From an uncultured virus (IMG/VR IMGVR_UViG_3300014676_000001) (Duplodnaviria; Heunggongvirae; Uroviricota; Caudoviricetes), in IMG/VR virus record IMGVR_UViG_3300014676_000001, positions 1-64,000 of that record: 64,000 nucleotides of DNA. One strand, given 5' to 3'. Shown here in pieces: positions 2,937 through 47,051 of this stretch. How positions within the stretch are numbered: the stretch's first letter is position 1; each line of letters opens with the position of its first letter. The notes under the pieces are model-generated. The model saw only the letters and a program-made list of their open reading frames with translations, was not told where the DNA came from and made no database searches. The position numbers and the translations under genes were made by a program.

Positions 2937-3406
2937 TTGGCGCGCTGGTTAAGCGTTGCTGGCTGCAACTGATTGTGGTGTCGGTAATCGGCGTGCTGGC
3001 GTTCTTCGTTAACCACTACCGCGACAACGCCATCACCTACAAAGACCAGCGCGACAAAGCCACCAAAAGTCTCCGCCTGGCTAACGACACCATCAAAGAC
3101 ATGCAGACCCGCCAGCGTGATGTCGCTGCGCTGGATGCCAAATACACGAAGGAATTGTCCGATGCGAAAAAAACCATTAACGATTTGCGTCGGGATGTCG
3201 ATTCTGGCGTTAAACGGCTGCGCATCGCCGCAACCTGCCCTGGAATGTCCAAAGCCACCTCCGCCACCGGCGTGGATGATGCAGGAGCCCCCGAACTTAC
3301 TCCAGACGCTCGACGGAATTATTTCGATCACCGGGACGGAATCGAAACCGTTAACAAAATGATTCACGGCATGCAGGAATACATCGATACGCAGTGTCAG
3401 AAATAA
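2933..3406 (+). CDS. Rz: Rz i-spanin
   Basis: N-terminal TM, coiled coil, RLRIAATC, QEYIDTQC end. Confidence 0.9.
   Translation: MIGALVKRCWLQLIVVSVIGVLAFFVNHYRDNAITYKDQRDKATKSLRLANDTIKDMQTRQRDVAALDAKYTKELSDAKKTINDLRRDVDSGVKRLRIAATCPGMSKATSATGVDDAGAPELTPDARRNYFDHRDGIETVNKMIHGMQEYIDTQCQK
3162..3362 (+). CDS. Rz1: Rz1 o-spanin lipoprotein embedded in Rz
   Basis: +1 frame, lipobox LNGC, proline-rich CPKPPPPPAWMM. Confidence 0.88.
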   Translation: MRKKPLTICVGMSILALNGCASPQPALECPKPPPPPAWMMQEPPNLLQTLDGIISITGTESKPLTK

Positions 3407-17192: not shown

Positions 17193-17265
17193 AAACGTTG
17201 AAGCCCCGGCTGCGCTAACAGTCAGGGCTTCGGTATCGAACAAATCCGGCAAGGAAAATATCGAC
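17192..17265 (-). ncRNA. Sar-like antisense RNA covering the antirepressor RBS
   Basis: GAAGCCCCGGCTGCGCTAACAGTCAGGGCTTC hairpin resembles the P22 arc-ant intergenic region as I recall it; minus-strand -10 TACAAT at 17277-17272. Confidence 0.6.
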
Positions 17266-17991: not shown

Positions 17992-18765
17992 ATGACTTCT
18001 TTAAATTTAGCAGTTCATGAACCAAATGTCGATCCCAAGCCACTGCCAGTGATTGAATGGAAGGGGTTGCGTGTTGTTACGACTGAAACGCTGGCCGCAG
18101 GTTATGGTTCTGATGAGGCTAATATTAGGAAAAACCTTTCGCGCAATGCCAGCCGCTTCATTGAGGGCATCCACATCTTCACCATTAAAGGCCAAGAGCT
18201 GAAGGATTTGCGAGTGACTAATAGTCACGCACAAATTTCGAGCAAAGCCCGCTCTGTTGTTTTTTGGACCGAAAAGGGCGCGGCCCGTATGTCGAAGATT
18301 GTTGATACTGACGAAGCATGGGCCTTTTTCGAACGCCTTGAGGATGCTTACTTCCGTCCAACTCCATCAATGGGTATCCCGCTGACCTATGAAGCAGCTC
18401 TGGAAGACCTCCTGACAAAAGTGAAAGAGAACCGCATTATTGCTGAACAGCGCGATCGTGCAGTTAAAGAGAAGCGCTGGATCTCTGAGAAACGCGAAGT
18501 AACCGCGATGGCAACAGCTTCCGCTGCTGTTCGTGCCAAAAACAAACTGGCGGAACGCATCGGGGAAGGAAAAAACTATGCCGCCATTATCCCGGTAGAG
18601 AAGAAGCTCGGACAGAAATTCAAATGGCAGCCACTGCGCAAGTGGTGCAGGGAGAATAGCGCCGAACCGCATGAGGTTGAGGATCCGCGTTTTGGCACCG
18701 TGAAGTCCTGGCCTCGCGCTGCATGGATGGCGGTGTACAACGTGGATTTGCGCAAGATCTTTTAA
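17992..18765 (+). CDS. ORF6N-domain antirepressor-like protein
   Basis: RVVTTETLAAGYG, WTEKGAARMSKIVDTDEAW, LEDAYF. Confidence 0.8.
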   Translation: MTSLNLAVHEPNVDPKPLPVIEWKGLRVVTTETLAAGYGSDEANIRKNLSRNASRFIEGIHIFTIKGQELKDLRVTNSHAQISSKARSVVFWTEKGAARMSKIVDTDEAWAFFERLEDAYFRPTPSMGIPLTYEAALEDLLTKVKENRIIAEQRDRAVKEKRWISEKREVTAMATASAAVRAKNKLAERIGEGKNYAAIIPVEKKLGQKFKWQPLRKWCRENSAEPHEVEDPRFGTVKSWPRAAWMAVYNVDLRKIF

Positions 18766-36772: not shown

Positions 36773-37126
36773 TTTAGGTTTTAACTAATGACTAGATGCG
36801 CCACAGAAGCTGTTTAACCTCACCTAAGCGCATCGCTATTGCTATAGTTGGTATATTCGTAACCTAACCACATGATTTTAAAAGATAAACAAATTGAACA
36901 AATTTCATCCAAAGATAACCAAACATGTCAAATTCCTCGCTGCTTATACACTTTAAAATCCCTCCATCTCTTCTGCCAAATTATCAAAACATAATCTAAG
37001 AACACTATAGGGGTTGATTCCAACCAATCCCTAAAAACACTATAACAGAACATAAATAAAGAACGCAATTTCTATAGATCATAAATTCGGAACATATAAC
37101 ACATAACATATCGCACACACGGAACA

Positions 37127-37182
37127 TATCAGCACACAATACCCCATTATACGCGCGTATAATGGGGCATTGTGTGCTGATA
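37127..37182. other. telRL: telRL telomere resolution site (56-bp palindrome, 1 mismatch)
   Basis: TATCAGCACACAATACCCCATTATACGC|GCGTATAATGGGGCATTGTGTGCTGATA between sopA and telN. Confidence 0.96.
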
Positions 37183-37346
37183 TAGAGAACATAGGCACAG
37201 AACAAAGCTCAATCAATCCGTTATTGTGTTCTGTTGAAATTCTGTTATTATGTTCTCTTATAGTGTGATGAAAGTAGCACAATTATTGGGCGCATGTTCT
37301 TTGATTGTGTTACGATATGAGGCAACTTAGATACGGGAGAGCCGGG

Positions 37347-39247
37347 ATGAGCAAGGTAAAAATTGGCGNNNNNNNNNNATCAATGCGCTTGTGAATGAGG
37401 TAGAAGCAATTGATGCCTCGGACCGCCCACAAGGCGATAAAACGAAGAGAATTAAAGCCGCCGCCGCACGGTACAAGAACGCGTTATTTAATGATAAAAG
37501 AAAATTCCGTGGGAAAGGTCTGCAAAAAAGAATAACCGCAAATACTTTTAACGCTTATATGAGCAGGGCAAGAAAACGCTTTGATGATAAGTTGCATCAT
37601 AGCTTTGATAAAAATATTCATAAATTATCTGAAAAGTATCCGCTCTATAGTGAAGAATTATCTTCATGGTTGTCTATGCCTACGGCTAATATTCGACAGA
37701 ATATGTCAGCACTACAATCTAAATTAAAATCAATAATGCCTCTTGCCGAAGAATTATCAAATATAAAATTAGGTGTTAAAGGCAGTGATGCAAAATTAAC
37801 AAAGCTAACAAAGAAATATCCAGATTGGAGTTTCGCTATTAGTGATTTATGCAGTGATGATTGGAGGGAAAGACGCGACTACCTTTATAAGTTGTTCCAA
37901 CAAGGCTCTTCATTGTTAGAAGAGCTGCATCAGCTCAAGGTCAACCACGAGGTTCTGTACCATCTTCAGCTTAGCCCTGCGGAGCGTACATCTATACAAC
38001 AGCGATGGGCCGATGTTCTGCGCGAGAAGAAGCGCAGTGTTGTAGTTATTGACTACCCAAAATACATGCAGTCAATTTATGATATTTTGAATAGTCCTGC
38101 GACTTTATTTAGTTTAAACACTCGTTCTGGAATGGCTCCCTTGGCCTTTGCTCTGGCTGCGGTATCGGGGCGACGAATGATTGAGATAATGTTTCAGGGT
38201 GAATTTACCGTTTCAGGAAAATATACCGTTAATTTCTCAGGGCAAGCCAAAAAACGTACTGAAGATAAAAACGTAACCAGAAAGATTTATACTTTATGCG
38301 AAGCTAAATTATTCGTTGAGCTATTAACTGAATTACGTTCTTGCTCTGCTGCATCTGACTTCGATGAAGTTATTCAGGGATATGGTAAGGATGATACAAG
38401 GTCCGAGAATGGTAGAATAAACGCTATTTTAGCCAAGGCATTTAATCCTTGGGTTAAAACATTCTTTGGCGATGAGCGCCGTGTTTATAAAGATAGCCGC
38501 GCTATTTACGCCCGTATCGCGTATGAGATGTTCTTTCGCGTCGATCCACGGTGGAAAAACGTGGACGAGGACGTTTTCTTCATGGAGATTCTCGGACACG
38601 ACGACGAGAACACCCAGCTGCACTATAAGCAATTCAAGCTGGCCAACTTCTCCAGAACCTGGCGACCGGATGTTGGGGACGAAAACTCCCGGCTGGTGGC
38701 CCTCCAGAAACTGGACGACGAAATGCCGGGCTTTGCCAGAGGTGACGCCGGTGTCCGTCTCCATGAAACCGTCAAGCAGCTGGTGGAGCAGGACCCATCT
38801 GTAAAAATAACCAACAGCACTCTCCGGGCCTACAAATTTAGCCCGACGATGATTAGCCGGTACCTGGAATTTGCCGCTGATGCATTGGGGCAGTTCGTTG
38901 GTGAGAATGGCCAGTGGCAACTGAAGCTTGAGGCGCCTGCAATCGTCCTGCCTGATGAAGATGGCGTTGATGCCATCGACGAACCGGATGATGAACCTCA
39001 GGACGACGAGCTGGACGACGATGAAATTGAGGTAGATGAGGATGGTGCCGAAGAGCATACCGAAGAAAAAGAGCCAGAAAAAAATCAGCAGGCTGCTTTA
39101 AAACCAGTCTTCAAACCTGCAAAAAACAACGGAGACGGAACGTACCAGATAGAGTTTGAGTACGATGGGAAGCACTATGCTTGGTCCGGCCCAGCCGATA
39201 GCCCTATGGCAGCTATGCGATCTGCATGGGAAACCTACCACAGCTAA
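37347..39247 (+). CDS. telN: Protelomerase TelN (N gap at 37369-37378 near start)
   Basis: MSKVKIG start; SGRRMIEI, GQAKKR, KDSRAIYA, LGHDDENTQLHYKQF catalytic motifs; acidic linker. Confidence 0.97.
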
Positions 39248-39420: not shown

Positions 39421-40215
39421 CTATTTTTCGATAATTGCTGACGAGGTAAGTTTTGTGGAAAGCGTCTCCAGCTTCTCGATGGCCAGCTCAAAATGTGCTG
39501 GCAGCACCTTCTCCAGTTCCGTATCAATATCGGTGATCGGCAACTCCCCGCACGACATACTCCGGCGACCACCACGAACTACATCGCGCAGCAGCTCCCG
39601 TTCGTAAACTCGCATGTTACCCAGGGCCGTTTCTGCGGCAGTTAATATCCGGCGCAGCTCGGCGATGATTGCCGGGAGATCATCCACAGTGATTGGGTTC
39701 GGTGATGGGTTCCTGCATGCGCGGCGCAAGGCCATCCAGACCCCACTAACCCATGCATTACGGTACTGGAAGCTTTGGGCTATATCGTTTATCAGCCCCC
39801 GCAGTTCTTCTTTTTGCCTCCAGTCCAGAGGTTCACCAGTGCTCTTAGGCACTGGTTCCACAAAAGCATACTCCCCGTTCTTCCGGATAGCTGGCAGCAC
39901 CTCGTTCGTCACCCATTTTCGGAACCGCCAGGCAGTGGTTCCTTGCTTCACCGCGTCACGGCAGCGGAGGATGAGGGTATAGAGACCAGATTCCGATACA
40001 ACATTTACTTCCCTGGCCATGCGATCAAGTTTTTGTGCCTCGGTTAAACCGAGGGTCAATTTTTCATCATGATCCAGCTTGCGCAATGCGTCAGAAGGGT
40101 TTGCAATATTCAATGCAGCGCAGATATCCAACGCCACGAACCACGGCTCACCCTTAATAAGAACCACCCGGACCGGGTGGTTTTCCTGAAATGAGAAGAC
40201 AGAAAGTGCGTTCAT
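39421..40215 (-). CDS. antB: BRO-N protein, AntB-like
   Basis: GEPWFVALDIC, VSESGLYTLILR, FRKWVTNEVLPAIRKNG; last gene of immA operon. Confidence 0.75.
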   Translation of the reverse strand: MNALSVFSFQENHPVRVVLIKGEPWFVALDICAALNIANPSDALRKLDHDEKLTLGLTEAQKLDRMAREVNVVSESGLYTLILRCRDAVKQGTTAWRFRKWVTNEVLPAIRKNGEYAFVEPVPKSTGEPLDWRQKEELRGLINDIAQSFQYRNAWVSGVWMALRRACRNPSPNPITVDDLPAIIAELRRILTAAETALGNMRVYERELLRDVVRGGRRSMSCGELPITDIDTELEKVLPAHFELAIEKLETLSTKLTSSAIIEK

Positions 40216-40442
40216 TTATCCTCCTCTGATTTCAGCTGCTCAGATAAGGACAAGGAGCAACCGCGAGCCTCTTGCGTAAGCTCACGCGCCAGCTGAAGGA
40301 GTTCGGCGGCCTCCTGCAAATACAGTGAAGCCTCATAGCTGGAGATAGTACGGTGGGCAGATGATACCAGCGCTTCCACTTGCGTCAGGCGCTCCTCAAG
40401 CGACTCCAGCAGGCCTTGGGCGTTCAGCTCTATCTGGTTCAT
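40212..40442 (-). CDS. antA: Antirepressor AntA-like
   Basis: Between icd and BRO gene; EASLYLQEAAELL is similar to the LexA-controlled ORF at 52452. Confidence 0.7.
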   Translation of the reverse strand: MNQIELNAQGLLESLEERLTQVEALVSSAHRTISSYEASLYLQEAAELLQLARELTQEARGCSLSLSEQLKSEEDK

Positions 40443-40603
40443 GCGATCACCTCGCTGACTGGGATACGGGCTGACAGAACGAGGACAAAACGGCTGGCGA
40501 ACTGGCGGCGAGCTTCTCGCTCGGATGATGCAATAGTGGAGAGGTGGTGGATATGGGATTTTTTGTCCGTGCGGACAACAGCTGCAAACTTGAATTTGAA
40601 CAT
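40439..40603 (-). CDS. icd: Icd-like cell-division inhibitor, 54 aa, not in ORF track
   Basis: MFKFKFAAVVR...IASSEREARRQF...LVLSARIP; RBS AGGA; ATGA overlap with antA. Confidence 0.85.
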   Translation of the reverse strand: MFKFKFAAVVRTDKKSHIHHLSTIASSEREARRQFASRFVLVLSARIPVSEVIA

Positions 40604-40659
40604 GGCATGCATTCCTATCTTGTATAGGGTGCTACCACCAGAGGTTCCAATCTCTATGG

Positions 40660-40740
40660 GGTGGTAGCCCAGGCGGGGTTGGAACTACCGGTACAAGAAG
40701 AAACCGGCCCGACATAAGTCGGCCCCACCTGAGCCACCAT
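40660..40740 (-). ncRNA. cA: C4/CA antisense RNA #1 (cognate)
   Basis: P1 GGUGGCUCAGGUGGGG/CCCCGCCUGGGCUACC; P3 loop UUCUUCUUGU; junction AGUUCCAA; complementary sites at 40813-40819 + 40797-40804 and 40644-40650 + 40618-40624. Confidence 0.92.
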
Positions 40741-40850
40741 AAAATGGGTGCAATCAGGCACAGACACAAAAAAACACGCAGGCGCGTGTTGTGCGTCTTC
40801 TTGTTATCCGGGGTTCCAATCCCGGTTGCGGATTTTGCCGCAACGGGGTA

Positions 40851-40880
40851 ACTCTACCGCCAAAACAGAGCGCACGTCAA
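40851..40880 (-). promoter_or_regulatory. immA promoter
   Basis: TTGACG-18-TAGAGT upstream of the a1/b1 leader. Confidence 0.7.
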
Positions 40881-40976
40881 TAATTTACGTAGATACTTTA
40901 CCCCGTGACCCGTCACGGGGATAGCCATTTTTATAGTTTGCTTTACTGACTGATCAGAACCTGATCAGTTGTTGTA

Positions 40977-41057
40977 GGGGGTAGCCCAGACGAGGGTAGG
41001 AATACCGGTGAACGCACAAACCGGCCCAACCGAAGCTGGCCCCACCTGAGCCACCAT
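40977..41057 (-). ncRNA. C4-type RNA #2 (different loops)
   Basis: Same scaffold; P2 CCAGC-UUCG-GUUGG; P3 loop UUGUGCGUUC; junction UAUUCCUA. Confidence 0.88.
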
Positions 41058-41074
41058 AATTACGAAGGCTGCTT

Positions 41075-41157
41075 GGGTGGCAGAACAGGTAGGGGTGAGA
41101 ATCCGGCCCCATGCGATAACCGGCCAGCCTATCGGCTGCCCCACCTGATCTGCCATT
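41075..41157 (-). ncRNA. C4-type RNA #3 (different loops)
   Basis: Scaffold with compensatory changes UGGCAGAUCAGGUGGGG/CCCCUACCUGUUCUGCCA; P2 CAGCC-GAUA-GGCUG; P3 loop UAUCGCAUGGG; junction AUUCUCA. Confidence 0.85.
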
Positions 41158-41166
41158 ATTCAGACG

Positions 41167-41255
41167 AAAAAAAACCGCCTTAGGAGGGCGGCTTTCTTCT
41201 CATTCCAGTTGTTAGGAGCAACAGGAAGATACGATGAAGACTTGTAAATTGACAC
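41167..41255 (-). ncRNA. Putative antitoxin sRNA (~88 nt)
   Basis: Promoter TTGCAA-17-TATTAT (41288-41260); terminator GCCGCCCU-CCU-AAGGCGGU plus U-run; 5' 21 nt complementary to 41594-41614. Confidence 0.72.
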
Positions 41256-41685
41256 CCCAATAATAGTACCCTGGGCATGTGATTGCAACCGATCTGTGTA
41301 CATGATGAACATACGAACTTTCAGCTAAATAACTTGTAAAAAATTGAGAGTTTTCTGTATGCTTACTGCGTTAGTTTCTCGTCAGAGCAGGAACACAGAG
41401 ACCCCAAGAAATATTGGAACGCTTTCCAGGCTTCCAACCCTTGATAAAAAACCGTTGTTCGAATGATCGAACTACTTTTTTTGTCAAACTTCCACTCACC
41501 GGCCCTTGTTGCTGAGTGGAATCTCTGTGCGGTCGGTGGTCGGGGGGTAGGATCCCCGGTTGAGCTAGTCACTGGTCAAATCCATACCCTGCTATGAAGA
41601 CTTGTAAATTGACAATACTTGTCGCAGGACGAAACGGGGACTCAACCAGAGTGGCTGTCCGCATAGCTCCTTAAAGGGGCGAGAA

Positions 41686-41811
41686 ATGAAACATTCCATT
41701 ATCATTCTGGTTTTGTTCGTTGTCTTGAAAACGTTTAGTTCGGCTGAAGGCCCGGCGATTAATATCACCGGTAATACCTTACAGTTCGGCTCGTTCACTC
41801 AGACCAAGTAA
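41686..41811 (+). CDS. Putative type I toxin, TimP/RyfA-like, 41 aa, not in ORF track
   Basis: MKHSIIILVLFVVLKTFSSAEGPAINITGNTLQFGSFTQTK; SD AAGGGG inside hairpin GCTCCT-TAA-AGGGGC; long leader; terminator 41833-41855. Confidence 0.7.
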   Translation: MKHSIIILVLFVVLKTFSSAEGPAINITGNTLQFGSFTQTK

Positions 41812-41870
41812 CGATAAAATCTTCGGGTTTTCCGCCGCCTTCGGGCGGCGTTTTTATTTGTCATGCCCTG

Positions 41871-42224
41871 TCACTTTAGCCCGGTAATCCGGCTGACGAA
41901 CGCGCCCACCTTCGACGTTGATTCAAACCCCATACGGCCACGAATGAGCCACTGGAACGGAATCGTCAGCAGGTACAGCGGAACGAACCACAAACGGTTC
42001 AGGCGCTGCCAGAACGTCGCATCACGATGTCCCATCCATTTAGTATTATCGACAACCTGATAGGCATACTGCGACTGGTCAAGCTCATAGTCTTTGGGTG
42101 CTCCTGAATCACCCTCGCAAAGAAAACGAGAAATCCTTTCCCAATTCTCAAAACCCTGCTCTTTGAGTTTTTTCTCCAGGTCGCTCCGGAACAAAACCGG
42201 CACCCACCCTCTGCGATAAATCAT
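41871..42224 (-). CDS. Hypothetical protein, repA operon
   Basis: Overlapping gene chain downstream of repA. Confidence 0.75.
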   Translation of the reverse strand: MIYRRGWVPVLFRSDLEKKLKEQGFENWERISRFLCEGDSGAPKDYELDQSQYAYQVVDNTKWMGHRDATFWQRLNRLWFVPLYLLTIPFQWLIRGRMGFESTSKVGAFVSRITGLK

Positions 42225-42852: not shown

Positions 42853-43054
42853 TATTGCCCCTCCAGTTAACCAAAATTTCCCGGTAAACCCACTTCCACA
42901 CGCGGTAGTTGCTCTCAAAGGCTGCGCCACGAGCCTTAATGCGGCGGACCTGGGTATCTTGCTGGCAACGCTTCAGCGCCTTAATCGACCGATACCAGTG
43001 CCAAAGGACCGATAAGGCACCTGTGGCCAGCAGCGTTAGCAGTAAATCAGCCAT
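42842..43054 (-). CDS. Small membrane protein
   Basis: N-terminal TM; RBS GGAGG within repA end. Confidence 0.6.
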   Translation of the reverse strand: MADLLLTLLATGALSVLWHWYRSIKALKRCQQDTQVRRIKARGAAFESNYRVWKWVYREILVNWRGNNVD

Positions 43055-46000
43055 AGAACGCCTCCTGCGCGCCGTAGCCGCCCGTAGTCATTCCGGTGAT
43101 GTATTCACGCAAGCTTCGCAGCTCGTGGCTGGAGAGGCGCTCCATGAACTCTGTGAGGTACAGAGAGGCAAAGGTCATCGCGATGCTGGCTGGTGACCAC
43201 GTAGCCATCGTTGCCAGCTCGTCGCCGGACAGCGCGGTCAGCGCCCAGGCCTCAGGAACCGGAACCGGCAGCGTGGCCAGCGCCTCGGTTATTACTGAAT
43301 GAGGGGCGTCGGAATCCTGCTCGTTTGTGGATCGCGATTTATGATCCATATATATATTGAGATCCAAATCGTGATCCACTTCGTTGGCGGTCTTCTCGGT
43401 TTTACGCGTCTGTAGGCTCAAGCCGTCTTCCTGGCGTTTGGCGAGGATGTCCATCATGAACTCTGCCGACTGCTGGTCAACGAAGCGGATAGTAGGCCGC
43501 TTATCCCCATCCCTGGCGCGTCGCTTGTCGGTCTTCAGGCCGAGTGAATCACAGATGTTTTTAAACAGGGCTTCCGGCACCTTCGGCTTACCTTTCGGCG
43601 TCATAAAGCCACCGATGCGCAAAACGTTGTTCAACATGTCCCGGCGTTCGGCGGTCATGAGGTTATCCCTGGCGCGTTTGAGGCGCTCCTGGGTGGCCTC
43701 GCCTGTCATTGTCTCCGGGTCGATGCCGCAGTCGATAAAGTACTGGCGCAGCGCTGTCGATTTGAGGCCATAGAAGCCGCGCATGGCCACCTCGACTACA
43801 GGCAGGCTTTTGACTTTGTAATCGACGATGCCAGGGTGTTTAGCCTGGAATGCTTCATCGGCCTGTTCGCGGGTCATTGCCGTGACGACAAAGTATTCCC
43901 ACTGCCCGGCTTGTCTGAATGAGTAGGTAAAGTTGATCGCCGACTCCTCGCGGTCGTAGCGACGCGCTGTAACCTCGTCGAGCAGCATGGTTTCATAGCG
44001 GCGGACTTTATCTCGAGCGCCGTCGAAGTAGAATTTCAGGGTACCTTCGTCGACCGGGAGCTTCAGCTCGTGCTCGATGTCCCAGCGGACAAGCTTCGCC
44101 TGTTCCTCCAGGGTTAGCGCTCGTTTTTTCAGAATCGCTTCGCGTTCTGATTCGTCCGGCGTATCGATGTTCAGGTGAAGATCCAGCGTTTGTTCCCAGA
44201 CGATTTCCCGCGCTTCCTTACGCAGCTCCTTCCCGACTTCATTCGCCTGCGGGTCTCCGGCCAGCGGCGAAACTTTATAGCCGTCGCTGTGCATAATGCA
44301 GATCATGTTGCTGGCGTAATCGTTGCGCGCCGTCGCTTCGATGGCTGATGCCTTGATTTTCATCCTGGTGAAATCGGTGTTGGCCACACCCATGGAAATT
44401 GTGTCGCCGTCAAAGACAACGTCCGTCAGCTCGCCGTTCATACCGGCAGTGGCCAGAAGTGCCTGGACGTAAGCGCGTTCGATTTTTTGAGGATCGGTTT
44501 CGCGTTTTGCGCGAACCTTATCAAAACCGATGATAAATTCTTTCGCGGTACGGTCGCGGCGCAGCATCTGGATAGCGTCGCTGGGGACCACTTCACCGCA
44601 GAACATGCCGAAGTGGCGATCGAAGTGTTTCTGCTCGATGGACACGCCGGATGAGATTGATGGGCTGTAAATCAGGCCATCGTACTTCTTCACCATCTTC
44701 TTCGGTTTGTTGGTGAACTCTTCCACCTCTGGCTCTGGTTTGCTTTTCTGGTTTACGCACAGGAACTTCTTGTGCGGGTAATTCAGGCGCAGGGTGGCGG
44801 TAACGTCCTCGGCGAACGTGGAACTGTCGGTGGCCAGCATGATTTTTTCACCGAGCTCTACGGCCTTCATCACCTCGGACATGATGCGATCCTTTTCGGT
44901 GTAGAAGACGCGGATAGGTTCACCAGTTTCGCGGTTGCGAACGTCGACCGGCAATTCGATAACGTGGATTTGCAGCCATGCTGGTAGCCCCAGCTCTTCG
45001 CGGCGCTTCATTGCCAGTTCTGCCAGGTCAACCAGCAGATCGTTGGCATCAGCATCCACCATGATCGGGTGTAATTCTGTTCTGGCCAGCGCGTCAATCA
45101 GCGTATTGAACACCGCGACCGGGTTTTCCATTGCGCGGCCTGAAAGCACGGCACGGAGCCCCTGTGTGGCCTCGTCAAAACCGAAATAGTCGTGCTGGCG
45201 CATCAGTGGTTGCCAGCAGCCCTTCACGATGGAGTTTATGCAGATGGTCAGCTTGCTGGCGTATGGCGCCATTTCCTGGTAGCCAGGGTCCTGGTAATGC
45301 AGAATGTCGGCCTTAGCGCCTTTCCCTTCTGTCATCATTTCCCATAACCCACCGATGAGGCTCACCCTGTGCGCTACTGAAACGCCGCGTTCTGCGTTAT
45401 GCATCAACGGGCGAAGCAGGCCTGTCGATTTACCAGAACCCATGCCGGCACGGACAATTACGATCCCCTGTAGCTCCTGCACGTACTTCAGAACATCTTC
45501 GGTCATGACCGATGTTTCGAACCGCTTATAGGTGATGTGCTGTGGTCGTTTGTTTGGGTCGGTAATGCGATCGCTGAATGAACGAGGGGCCTGTGCCGTG
45601 CGGCATTTTCTGTTCAGGCGACGGGCAATATGGTCTTTGACGGTGGCGCGGTAGACGTTCTCAAGCCCCATGTCCCGCAGAACGATGCAGAACATGTTGA
45701 ACAGATCGGATGGGCTGTTCGGTACCGGGCATGTCAGCATGCCAATATCGACCGCGTTCAGCAGCTCTTTGGCGAATGTGCGGCGGTTATCCCGCTTAAG
45801 GGTTTTCAGCTTGTTCAGCGTCAGCGTGAGCAGGTCGGTGCTGGCGTTAAGGCGGTTTGATTTGGCAAACAGCTGGCGCGAGGTTTCGCGGAGGCCGCGT
45901 AATTTATGCAGGTCGTTGAAGTCGCTGCACTCCAGCTGGGGATCATCTTCAAATGTAGGGTAAACACACTTTATGCCGTGGAACTTTGACAGAATCTCAA

Positions 46001-47051
46001 AGCCGGTGCGCAGACCGGTATTGCCTTTTCCTTCAGCCGACGATTTACGGTCGTTATCCAGTGCGCAGGTGATTTTTGCAGCGGGATAGACGTTAACCAG
46101 CTGCTCGACAACGTGGATCATGTTATTGGCTGATATCGCTACAACCACAGCATCAAAGCGCTTTTTCGGGTCCTTCCTGGTAGCCAGCCAGACAGAAGCG
46201 CCCGTTGCGAAGCCTTCTGTTACGGCTACATTCTGCGCCCCTTTCAGGTCGCCAATAACGAAACACGTCCCGACGAAATCGCCGTTCGTGATGGCGCTGG
46301 TCTGGAATTTTCCGCCCTGGAGGTCGATACGTTGCCAGCCAACAATCCGCCCGTCTTTTCTTCCGTCCAGGTGGGACAGAGGTATCGCCATATAGGTTGT
46401 TGGCCCACGGCTCCATTTTGCACTGTCGTGACTGGTCACGCGACGTATATCGCATGCACTAAATACGTCACGAATACCTTTTTTAACCGCATAAGGCCAG
46501 GAACCATCTTCAGCTGGCGCCTGTTCCCAGGCGCGATGGAACGCCAACCAGCCGAGCAAACGTTCATGCTCTATCTGGTTGTTTTTCAAGTCATTGATGC
46601 GTTGCATCTCGACACGGCGGCGGCGTGCTTCAGCCTGGCGCTCCAGGCGCGCGCGTTCTTCTTCTGGCTGAGCGACCACGGTCGCACAGTTCCGCTGTTG
46701 CTCGCGGCGGTATTCAGAAAACAGGAAAGAGAAGCCGCTCCATGAACCGGCATCGCTGCCTTTATGGACGAAGTTGACAAAGGGGTAACTGATGCCGTCT
46801 TTGCTCTGCTCCAGTCGGGAGTAGATTTCGACGCGGCCTTTGAGGCTCTTTTCCAGCGCTACCGGGAAAGCATTATTGTACGTGGTGTAGCGTTCTTTGC
46901 CGCCACGAGGATTAAGCTGGATTCTGTCAGCGCAGGCATGCCAGTTGATACCGGCCATCTGCGCCAGCTCGCTTAGCTCATCCCGTGCTGCTTCAAGCAA
47001 CGAATACGGATCGCTGCTAAAGCGCTCCGCGTAGAATTCTTGTAAGGTCAT
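43047..47051 (-). CDS. repA: RepA primase-helicase replicase
   Basis: 1334 aa; TOPRIM TEGFATG and ALDNDR, SDFNDL; helicase AGMGSGKST and FDEA. Confidence 0.95.
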   Translation of the reverse strand: MTLQEFYAERFSSDPYSLLEAARDELSELAQMAGINWHACADRIQLNPRGGKERYTTYNNAFPVALEKSLKGRVEIYSRLEQSKDGISYPFVNFVHKGSDAGSWSGFSFLFSEYRREQQRNCATVVAQPEEERARLERQAEARRRRVEMQRINDLKNNQIEHERLLGWLAFHRAWEQAPAEDGSWPYAVKKGIRDVFSACDIRRVTSHDSAKWSRGPTTYMAIPLSHLDGRKDGRIVGWQRIDLQGGKFQTSAITNGDFVGTCFVIGDLKGAQNVAVTEGFATGASVWLATRKDPKKRFDAVVVAISANNMIHVVEQLVNVYPAAKITCALDNDRKSSAEGKGNTGLRTGFEILSKFHGIKCVYPTFEDDPQLECSDFNDLHKLRGLRETSRQLFAKSNRLNASTDLLTLTLNKLKTLKRDNRRTFAKELLNAVDIGMLTCPVPNSPSDLFNMFCIVLRDMGLENVYRATVKDHIARRLNRKCRTAQAPRSFSDRITDPNKRPQHITYKRFETSVMTEDVLKYVQELQGIVIVRAGMGSGKSTGLLRPLMHNAERGVSVAHRVSLIGGLWEMMTEGKGAKADILHYQDPGYQEMAPYASKLTICINSIVKGCWQPLMRQHDYFGFDEATQGLRAVLSGRAMENPVAVFNTLIDALARTELHPIMVDADANDLLVDLAELAMKRREELGLPAWLQIHVIELPVDVRNRETGEPIRVFYTEKDRIMSEVMKAVELGEKIMLATDSSTFAEDVTATLRLNYPHKKFLCVNQKSKPEPEVEEFTNKPKKMVKKYDGLIYSPSISSGVSIEQKHFDRHFGMFCGEVVPSDAIQMLRRDRTAKEFIIGFDKVRAKRETDPQKIERAYVQALLATAGMNGELTDVVFDGDTISMGVANTDFTRMKIKASAIEATARNDYASNMICIMHSDGYKVSPLAGDPQANEVGKELRKEAREIVWEQTLDLHLNIDTPDESEREAILKKRALTLEEQAKLVRWDIEHELKLPVDEGTLKFYFDGARDKVRRYETMLLDEVTARRYDREESAINFTYSFRQAGQWEYFVVTAMTREQADEAFQAKHPGIVDYKVKSLPVVEVAMRGFYGLKSTALRQYFIDCGIDPETMTGEATQERLKRARDNLMTAERRDMLNNVLRIGGFMTPKGKPKVPEALFKNICDSLGLKTDKRRARDGDKRPTIRFVDQQSAEFMMDILAKRQEDGLSLQTRKTEKTANEVDHDLDLNIYMDHKSRSTNEQDSDAPHSVITEALATLPVPVPEAWALTALSGDELATMATWSPASIAMTFASLYLTEFMERLSSHELRSLREYITGMTTGGYGAQEAFYG
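43328..43378. other. Candidate replication origin inside repA
   Basis: Four GATCCA motifs (one inverted) around an (AT)n tract; the N15 ori is known to lie within repA. Confidence 0.5.
46672..46685. other. sopC-like centromere IR1 (inside repA)
   Basis: GCGACCACGGTCGC, like F sopC TGGGACCACGGTCCCA. Confidence 0.8.

Follow-up and report, generated by a model that had tools for sequence, protein, structure and literature searches.

A tandem pair of additional C4-type RNA copies beside the N15-type anti-immunity switch of an uncultured phage

The window analyzed here is a 64,000-nucleotide (nt) stretch of DNA from an uncultured virus of the Caudoviricetes, positions 1 to 64,000 of the 77,431-base pair (bp) IMG/VR record IMGVR_UViG_3300014676_000001. 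Beside the operon of the antirepressor gene antA, its minus strand carries three copies of the C4 antisense RNA (c1, 40657-40744; c2, 40974-41061; c3, 41073-41160). The C4, CA, and CI RNAs are the textbook case of an RNA setting phage immunity specificity, and to our knowledge each known C4-type switch has one guide with its own boxes. We found that c1 has such boxes and that c2 and c3 are structurally intact copies without them, the b' loop of c2 being fully complementary to the start of antA. Our reading of the whole locus, which is tentative and to which we give somewhat less than an even chance, is that c1 would be a type-specific lock, c2 a type-independent lock on the antirepressor, and c3 a guide of foreign specificity.

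Fold and loops of the three C4 RNAs

When the window was searched with Rfam (cmscan at gathering thresholds; C4 is RF01695, with a cut-off of 45 bits), c1, c2, and c3 scored 83.7, 65.7, and 64.6 bits, respectively, and all three covered model positions 1-87 of 87. With a covariance model built in this analysis, c2 scored 91.4 bits and c3 83.6 bits. An earlier reading of the letters alone (the sequence-only reading) had placed three C4 copies on the minus strand and proposed a check with the Rfam C4 and c4-a1b1 models. The three C4 matches, together with one c4-a1b1 match of 53.8 bits, agree with it, its coordinates being off by 2-4 nt, and the loops that it gave were confirmed on direct reading. 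The a' and b' loops are AGUUCCAA and UUUCUUCUUGUA in c1, UAUUCCUA and UUUGUGCGUUCA in c2, and AUUCUCA and UUAUCGCAUGGGG in c3.

The minimum free energy fold had the C4 three-helix shape in each case (c1, -50.5; c2, -37.3; c3, -44.8 kcal/mol), with z-scores of -6.1, -2.1, and -4.0, respectively. A long closing helix surrounds two hairpins, b' is the loop of hairpin 3, and a' lies in the 3' joining strand. In an alignment of eight C4 sequences, including c1-c3, 97.7% of the cells were paired and six pairs had changes on both sides, and the covariation score was reached by none of 500 shuffles, in keeping with the earlier claim that the stems are kept by compensatory changes. At pairs 9-80 and 12-77 and within helix 2, it was c3 that contributed the changes on both sides. 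In all three copies, helix 1 is preceded by A(U/A)UAAU or AAUUAU followed by GG, the junction being a candidate site for ribonuclease P (RNase P). In the C4 family, RNase P generates the 5' end at the junction of AU and GG, and the mature RNA has ~77 nt.

Copy 1 and the resident switch

The minus-strand order of the elements is Pa, a1, b1, Ta, c1, a2, b2, icd, gp31-like gene, and antA. The Pa-like promoter of the icd-antA operon (TTGACG-18-TAGAGT, 40851..40880) was found by consensus scan and lies at the N15 position. Its leader (40769..40857) contains a1 (40813-40819), b1 (40796-40804), the stem of the terminator Ta (40773-40790), and, between b1 and Ta, the invariant single-stranded stretch ACGCACAA (40789-40796). 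Rfam gave an isrK-type leader at 40769-40844 (77.5 bits) and placed the c4-a1b1 target element at 40805-40857. The second target (40611..40650) consists of a2 (40644-40650) and b2, which lies over the icd ribosome site (~40612-40624). The icd-like gene (40439..40612; NCBIfam phage_ICD_like, E 1.3e-18), the gp31-like gene (40212..40442), and antA (39421..40215; Pfam Bro-N domain, E 4.6e-20) follow on the same strand, the gp31-like gene overlapping its two neighbors at the stops and starts.

Paired targets were called by a two-site rule, which requires an a-site (6 nt or more) and, no more than 45 nt after it, a b-site (7 nt or more). The rule, which found 48 of 83 cognate leaders, recovered both target pairs of c1, a1b1 (40819/40804) and a2b2 (40650/40624). 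As in switches of the P1/N15 type, c1 has paired boxes on both sides and an icd-like gene and an antirepressor gene downstream.

The boxes a1, a2, b1, and b2 covary with the c1 loops across the window, the plasmid CP056463.1, the IMG/VR contig G001, and N15. In the window, the c1 a' loop AGUUCCAA is paired with UUGGAAC boxes; in N15 and CP056463.1, a' is GUUGAGAA and the boxes are UCUCAAC; in G001, the b' loop GUCCAUUGGGA is paired with CCCAAUGG boxes. A DNA contig from one sequencing run (X8) spans the whole stretch, and its differences from the window are confined to 40644-40843, which holds a2, c1, and a1b1. Since the boxes track the loops and the X8 differences fall within this segment, c1 can be recognized as the known N15 CA-type system, i.e. 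it is, on comparison of these sequences, an ordinary N15-type CA RNA of a resident immA switch. As in the rest of the family, c1 would be cut from the Pa leader transcript, and its a' and b' loops would pair with a1b1 before and a2b2 after c1, silencing icd, gp31, and antA.

A purine stretch, CUGGAAUGAGAAGAAAG (minus strand, 41195-41215), precedes the terminator upstream of c3 and fits the a' and b' loops of c1 (-6.5 and -10.8 kcal/mol, respectively); at the corresponding position G001 has UGGAAC and AGAAGAAA. It could represent a degenerate a1b1 leader or else a third site for c1.

Copies 3 and 2 form a tandem insert

c3 and c2 make up a 187-bp head-to-tail pair, flanked by the terminator of a short upstream leader on one side and by the region upstream of Pa on the other. 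They are joined by an 11-nt linker (41062..41072, minus strand; 11/11 identical in G001). The spacer between c2 and Pa (40881..40973, minus strand) contains two palindromes (CTGATCAGGTTCTGATCAG and CCCCGTGACGGGTCACGGGG), is common to N15, and is 90/93 identical in G001. From gp33 to Pa the distance is ~125 nt in N15 versus ~1 kb in the window, and the Klebsiella pneumoniae plasmid CP067582.1 aligns at 41900-41162 and again from 40970 downward without the 187 bp. By these alignments, the pair is an insertion or deletion difference between relatives.

The earlier proposal that copy number and loops be compared across N15-like phages was followed. A single C4 was found in N15, in four related plasmids, and in 28 of 29 distinct N15-like IMG/VR contigs, the pair being present in the remaining one. 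Among 75 C4 RNAs in 80 IMG/VR loci, none was tandem, and of 16 matches to the tandem pattern in IMG/VR, 15 are not C4 and one is real. The pair was not found in a metagenome tandem scan (0), and in PLSDB searched by blastn the sole record matching both copies was CP056463.1. The trio is known from CP056463.1 and G001 besides the window. In CP056463.1, c3 and c2 are identical to those of the window and c1 is of the N15 type; in G001, c3 is identical at 87 of 88 positions, c2 has identical loops and several stem changes, and c1 is of a third type. Identity between the window and G001 is 99% for c3 and 91% for c2 versus 60-95% for neighboring segments, and five of the six c2 stem substitutions, as counted by eye, keep or restore pairing. 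At least half of the words of the stretch were present in 14 sequencing runs, showing that it is not an assembly artefact. A 5'-truncated homologue of c2 (b' UUUGUGCGCUGG, a' AUUCCUA) was found in an N15-like phage (L198, 1680-1745; IMGVR_UViG_3300007747_000025), where it occupies the same position upstream of Pa as c2 does in the window.

The main rival to our reading of the locus is that mosaic exchange between heteroimmune phages, taking place at the conserved C4 stems, brought in the pair, which persists as a neutral passenger whose complementarities are coincidental. We consider this unlikely, although it deserves serious attention. The rarity of the array (1/29 contigs, one PLSDB record, and none in the metagenome scan) and the truncated c2 at the matching place in another phage count in favor of a passenger, and the region is strongly mosaic, with c1 alleles being swapped beside an unchanged c3-c2 pair. 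However, both copies have kept the full fold above the Rfam cut-off in three diverged elements, the loops are unchanged and the stem changes mostly preserve pairing, and at least 14 sequencing runs contain the array.

Copy 2 fits the start of antA and the foot of Ta

The b' loop of c2, UUUGUGCGUUCA, is fully complementary to UGAACGCAC at 40206-40214, which consists of the last two bases of the antA start codon and codons 2-3. The 9 nt of Watson-Crick pairing amount to -14.6 kcal/mol, versus -11.7 for c1 b' with b1 and -9.7 for c1 b' with b2. In the antA start region, c2 b' was stronger than every one of 1000 shuffled and 37 natural b' loops, a result that speaks against a passenger with coincidental matches; across the operon's three start regions, a match of 9 nt was reached by 21/20000 random 12-mers. 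All three elements with the array have the UGAACGCAC site, as do 21 of 34 N15-like loci. When the truncated c2 of L198 was read against the antA start, we noted two changes, one of them matched (U to C opposite A to G) and the other uncompensated.

The same loop also pairs with ACGCACAA in the leader (40796-40789; 8 nt, -12.9 kcal/mol), a strength reached by 12 of 1000 shuffles and by none of the 37 natural loops. This stretch next to the terminator, (A/G)CGCACA(A/G)C, does not vary among N15-like leaders, that of the window included, and it was the best leader site for c2 in 16 of 17 leader types, the exception being G001. The a' loop of c2, of the AUUCCUA type, fits UAGGAAU at the icd ribosome site (7 nt, 40611-40617), which is also present in N15-type alleles but not in G001, and it fits the GUAGGAAC a1/a2 boxes of another, heteroimmune group of N15-like phages.

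Since the strongest match of c2 is the start of its own antA, and its leader site is present in its own leader as well, c2 appears not to be an orphan, or at least not fully one, but to add a further lock to the same operon. The b' loop would pair over the antA start codon and at the invariant foot of Ta, and c2 would most likely be a type-independent extra lock on the antirepressor, acting at the antA start and perhaps at Ta. Both b' sites are kept in this phage and most N15-like relatives, whatever the specificity of copy 1, and c2 would hold down the resident AntA plus the AntA of incoming relatives escaping copy 1.

It is also conceivable, although doubtful, that the tandem pair consists of 'master-key' guides, whose b' loops have moved from variable specificity boxes to invariant control regions of competitors. 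In N15-like phages the sites would be the foot of Ta and the start codon of antA; the site for c3 would be the constant flank of P4-type leaders. If this were true, an RNase P-processed mini-operon would give cross-immunity to heteroimmune relatives and satellites that the phage's own CA RNA does not see.

Paired targets of copies 2 and 3 in this and other elements

The sequence-only reading had stated that only copy 1 has canonical paired targets, and this was borne out: whereas the two-site rule recovered the c1 pairs, it gave one hit for c2 and three for c3 in the 77-kb record, against 1.8 and 1.7, respectively, expected from shuffled loops. In the window record, G001, and CP056463.1, the c2 and c3 hits were at chance level and none was common to all three. 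The best sites of c2, 40214 and 40617/40796, do not form a canonical pair.

The a' loop of c3, AUUCUCA, is of the type found in P4 CI RNA and in many N15-like phages of Klebsiella and Enterobacter. Its b' loop, UUAUCGCAUGGGG, occurs elsewhere in IMG/VR only in G001, and the closest tabulated resident loop is UAUCGUUUGGG. By the two-site rule, c3 had pairs in leaders of P4-like satellites, the hits amounting to 10 of 28 distinct leaders of the same a-type, five of them on both sides. These pairs comprise the a1 box GUGAGAAC with CCAUGCG in the terminator, and a2 with GCGAUAA. In P4, 12 of the 13 c3 b' bases pair directly after a2 (-14.2 kcal/mol), a spacing of zero that is non-canonical. The search for UGAGAAU-type paired leaders that had been suggested for c3 gave candidate sites, but these are weak, being close to chance by shuffling. 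c3 is probably a foreign-specificity guide aimed at a foreign leader, with the P4-like satellites as the best candidate on present matches.

The corresponding search for UAGGAAU-type paired leaders gave c2 pairs in N15-like elements with the GUAGGAAC a1 box (15 loci, some on the same contigs), i.e. in 6 of 18 distinct leaders of the same a-type, but the b-site used is the invariant stretch, which is also in c2's own leader. For comparison, other guides gave 17/766 two-site hits on non-cognate leaders of their own a-type.

These results bear on the earlier suggestion that copies 2 and 3 are orphan guides aimed at other elements. In its pure form, c2 and c3 would be idle on their own operon and silence only such anti-immunity or lytic operons as belong to other phages or to satellites, which we regard as rather improbable. 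The pairs of c2 in GUAGGAAC-type leaders and of c3 in P4-like leaders uphold part of the suggestion, as both rates exceed that of other guides on non-cognate leaders; the absence of canonical paired cis targets, the fact that the a' loops of c2 and c3 are the two commonest types among other elements, and the extended c3 b' pairing beside the P4 a2 box are likewise consistent with it. On the other hand, the best match of c2 is its own antA start, the b-sites in other leaders are invariant stretches and not specificity boxes, the c3 sites are near chance, and the P4 spacing is non-canonical. Moreover, no element with a resident C4 bearing the b' loop of c2 or c3 was found in exact IMG/VR scans, which returned G001 only, plus one truncated c2 relic and one chance hit, or among the ~40 distinct b' loops tabulated, and a metagenome scan for c2 found none. 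We also know of no stake of N15-like phages in P2-dependent satellites, which counts against trans-acting orphans.

Another reading, which we consider very improbable, is that c3 and/or c2 are decoys that titrate the resident C4 RNA or RNase P without pairing with mRNA. The a' loop of c3, AUUCUCA, is indeed complementary over 6 nt to the c1 a' loop GUUGAGAA of CP056463.1, G001, and N15. However, the c1 a' loop of the window is AGUUCCAA, hence c3-c1 pairing is absent here, 6 nt is at chance level, and c3 b' does not mimic a b box.

Several candidates were rejected. Energy-based two-site scans (with stem flanks, or with strict loops) ranked the true sites of c1 only third and eighth and were therefore not used for calling targets. 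The k-mer hits at +32577/+32607, +55109 (a methyltransferase gene), -10597, and +73080, and a 7-nt match of c3 a' at the holin start (55455), lie in coding sequence or are at chance frequency. The combination of GUGAGA and CCAUGCGAU in loci L209 and L220, a possible c3 target, lies inside an open reading frame (ORF) of 55 amino acids and is thus probably a chance match. An 8-nt same-sense match of c3 b' with the gp31 start is a coincidence, since G001 changes this site but not c3. L266 is a chance 18-mer match without a C4.

A C4 of an IncI plasmid was likewise set aside, its a' loop being as in c2 and its b' loop different. This C4 (Rfam 77.5 bits) lies at 2506-2593 of L268 (NC_018659.1, pESBL-EA11), between the rep region and traA. 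Approximately 1,400 conjugative PLSDB plasmids match it at ~76%.

Points against the reading of the locus

A number of findings weigh against the proposal of a type-independent lock (c2) and a foreign-specificity guide (c3). The two best sites of c2 lie ~400 nt apart, compared with 10-24 nt in canonical pairs, and at the start of antA the a' loop pairs over only ~4 bp. This start sequence is conserved for coding and is present in phages without c2, so it cannot discriminate. In G001, which has c2, neither the invariant leader stretch nor the UAGGAAU site is present. The c2 of the window has the weakest fold of the three (z -2.1), with a mismatched closing pair in helix 1, and the 5'-truncated c2 in a relative indicates that the element can decay. 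The c3 sites were matched by shuffled loops in 14/1000 trials with P4 and 128/1000 with L019. Energy-based two-site scoring separates true from chance sites poorly, and since many pairings were tried, the p-values are post hoc. The high identity of c3, linker, c2, and spacer may reflect a recent recombination tract rather than selection, and a strong terminator stands immediately upstream of c3.

The terminator also fits the neutral-passenger explanation, as do the post hoc nature of the c2 and c3 matches and the fact that pairings of 6-9 nt often arise by chance (by our estimate, ~2-5 9-mers per loop are expected in the record).

Possible expression of copies 3 and 2

Directly before c3 lies a ~90-nt leader or small-RNA-like unit (41165..41256, minus strand), which is kept in elements without c3 and c2. 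It consists of a leader of ~60 nt and the strong terminator (stem ~41195-41176, U-run to ~41168). Upstream of it, a consensus scan gave a promoter-like site (TTGCAA-17-TATTAT, 41260..41288, minus strand). The arrangement of promoter, leader, terminator, and c3 mirrors that of Pa, leader, Ta, and c1. No promoter was evident between the terminator and c3, suggesting that c3 and c2 are made by read-through. The read-through transcripts would be cut by RNase P at the conserved junctions of AAU and GG, freeing c3 and c2 as in a small tRNA operon.

Metatranscriptome contigs from three runs, mapped on 40600-41900, cover 41388-41803, which is outside c1, c2, and c3, and bear neither way on their expression.

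Immediately upstream of the promoter-like site, the alignment with CP056463.1 breaks off. At the 41288/41293 junction of the window, CP056463.1 has ~1.1 kb of unannotated sequence (L009, 3584-4678) without a window counterpart.

The leader unit belongs to a 700-bp unannotated block (41165-41870) common to K. pneumoniae CP067582.1, Citrobacter freundii NZ_CP056338.1, and two Enterobacter kobei plasmids. On its plus strand are a terminator (41833-41850) and a conserved ORF of 41 amino acids (41686-41811), whose N-terminus is signal-like; no small ORF of the block had a match in Pfam, NCBIfam, or the protein atlas. The metatranscriptome contigs on 41388-41803 came from three studies, and two of them begin at 41388. 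The block resembles a module of a small toxin and an antisense RNA. A 21-nt direct repeat, GTCAATTTACAAGTCTTCAT, occurs at 41594-41614 and 41234-41254, in each case just after a minus-strand promoter-like site, and is kept in four elements; the two copies may be the common 5' ends of two small RNAs.

Relation to known C4-type systems

The fold, the loops, and the copy-1 circuit are those of P1 c4, N15 CA, and P4 CI. The N15 anti-immunity locus immA, said to have been described by Ravin, Svarchevsky and Deho in 1999, reportedly comprises Pa, a leader, the cA gene of the CA RNA, icd, and antA. The window has the same order, the same isrK-like leader, and in c1 the counterpart of the single C4 of N15, whereas N15 lacks both the c3-c2 pair and the 700-bp block between gp33 and Pa, and the window c1 differs in its a' loop, with matching a1/a2 boxes. 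P4 CI (seqA/seqC) shares the a' loop AUUCUCA with c3, and the P4 leader has GUGAGAAC boxes; however, the P4 b' loop is UAUCCUGUGAAG versus UUAUCGCAUGGGG in c3, and c3 resides in an N15-like phage without P4 genes.

In the sections of PMC5320573 that deal with it (citing Citron and Schuster, Hartmann et al.), the c4 RNA of the P1/P7 immI region has three helices and a' and b' loops, b' occluding the ribosome site and a' setting specificity, and its 5' end is produced by RNase P. The window copies are three-helix RNAs with a' and b' loops too, but P1 has one c4 with a1b1 and a2b2, whereas the window has two further copies without flanking boxes. The same paper describes many C4-fold RNAs per genome in Acinetobacter baumannii, with differing a' regions and apparent processing at a GGW site, for which incoming phages or host mRNAs are the proposed targets (PMC5320573). 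As described there, those copies are dispersed in the chromosome, whereas those of the window form a tight tandem pair beside a phage immunity switch. In the literature searched, we found no publication on tandem C4 arrays, and none that describes two box-less C4 genes in tandem next to a switch of the N15 type.

A phage with extra structurally intact guides would show how immunity based on RNA alone can be widened or stacked with no need for new proteins. Phage-plasmids are common in Enterobacter and Klebsiella, and the locus would offer a simple model for phage-plasmid competition, especially if an invariant site in the antirepressor operon is matched by one of the guides. Should the extra copies be silent relics, the locus would still record the shuffling and loss of immunity cassettes.

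Two C4 loci also occur on the Klebsiella plasmid pKOXM1C (NZ_CP008844.1), at 3307-3394 and 18221-18307, 15 kb apart and with different loops; after the latter come icd-like, hypothetical, and TnpB genes. Two matching places were also seen in several Klebsiella plasmids of 55 kb.

Layout of the record

Positions 28291-77431 of the record are collinear with CP056463.1, a 45-kb Enterobacter cloacae plasmid of the N15 type. N15 itself aligns at 84-87% identity and in the same order from 40977 downward, including copy 1. The protelomerase gene (37391-39247, plus strand) is adjoined by an intact 58-bp telRL-type palindrome (37126-37183), indicating that the record holds an uncut telomere site. RepA is encoded at 43047-47051.

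Window positions 1-28290 are not N15-like and resemble the Salmonella phages S107 and SPN3UB (tail genes, antirepressor). They include a sar RNA at 17196-17264 (Rfam, 59.4 bits), and the record may be a composite of two phages.

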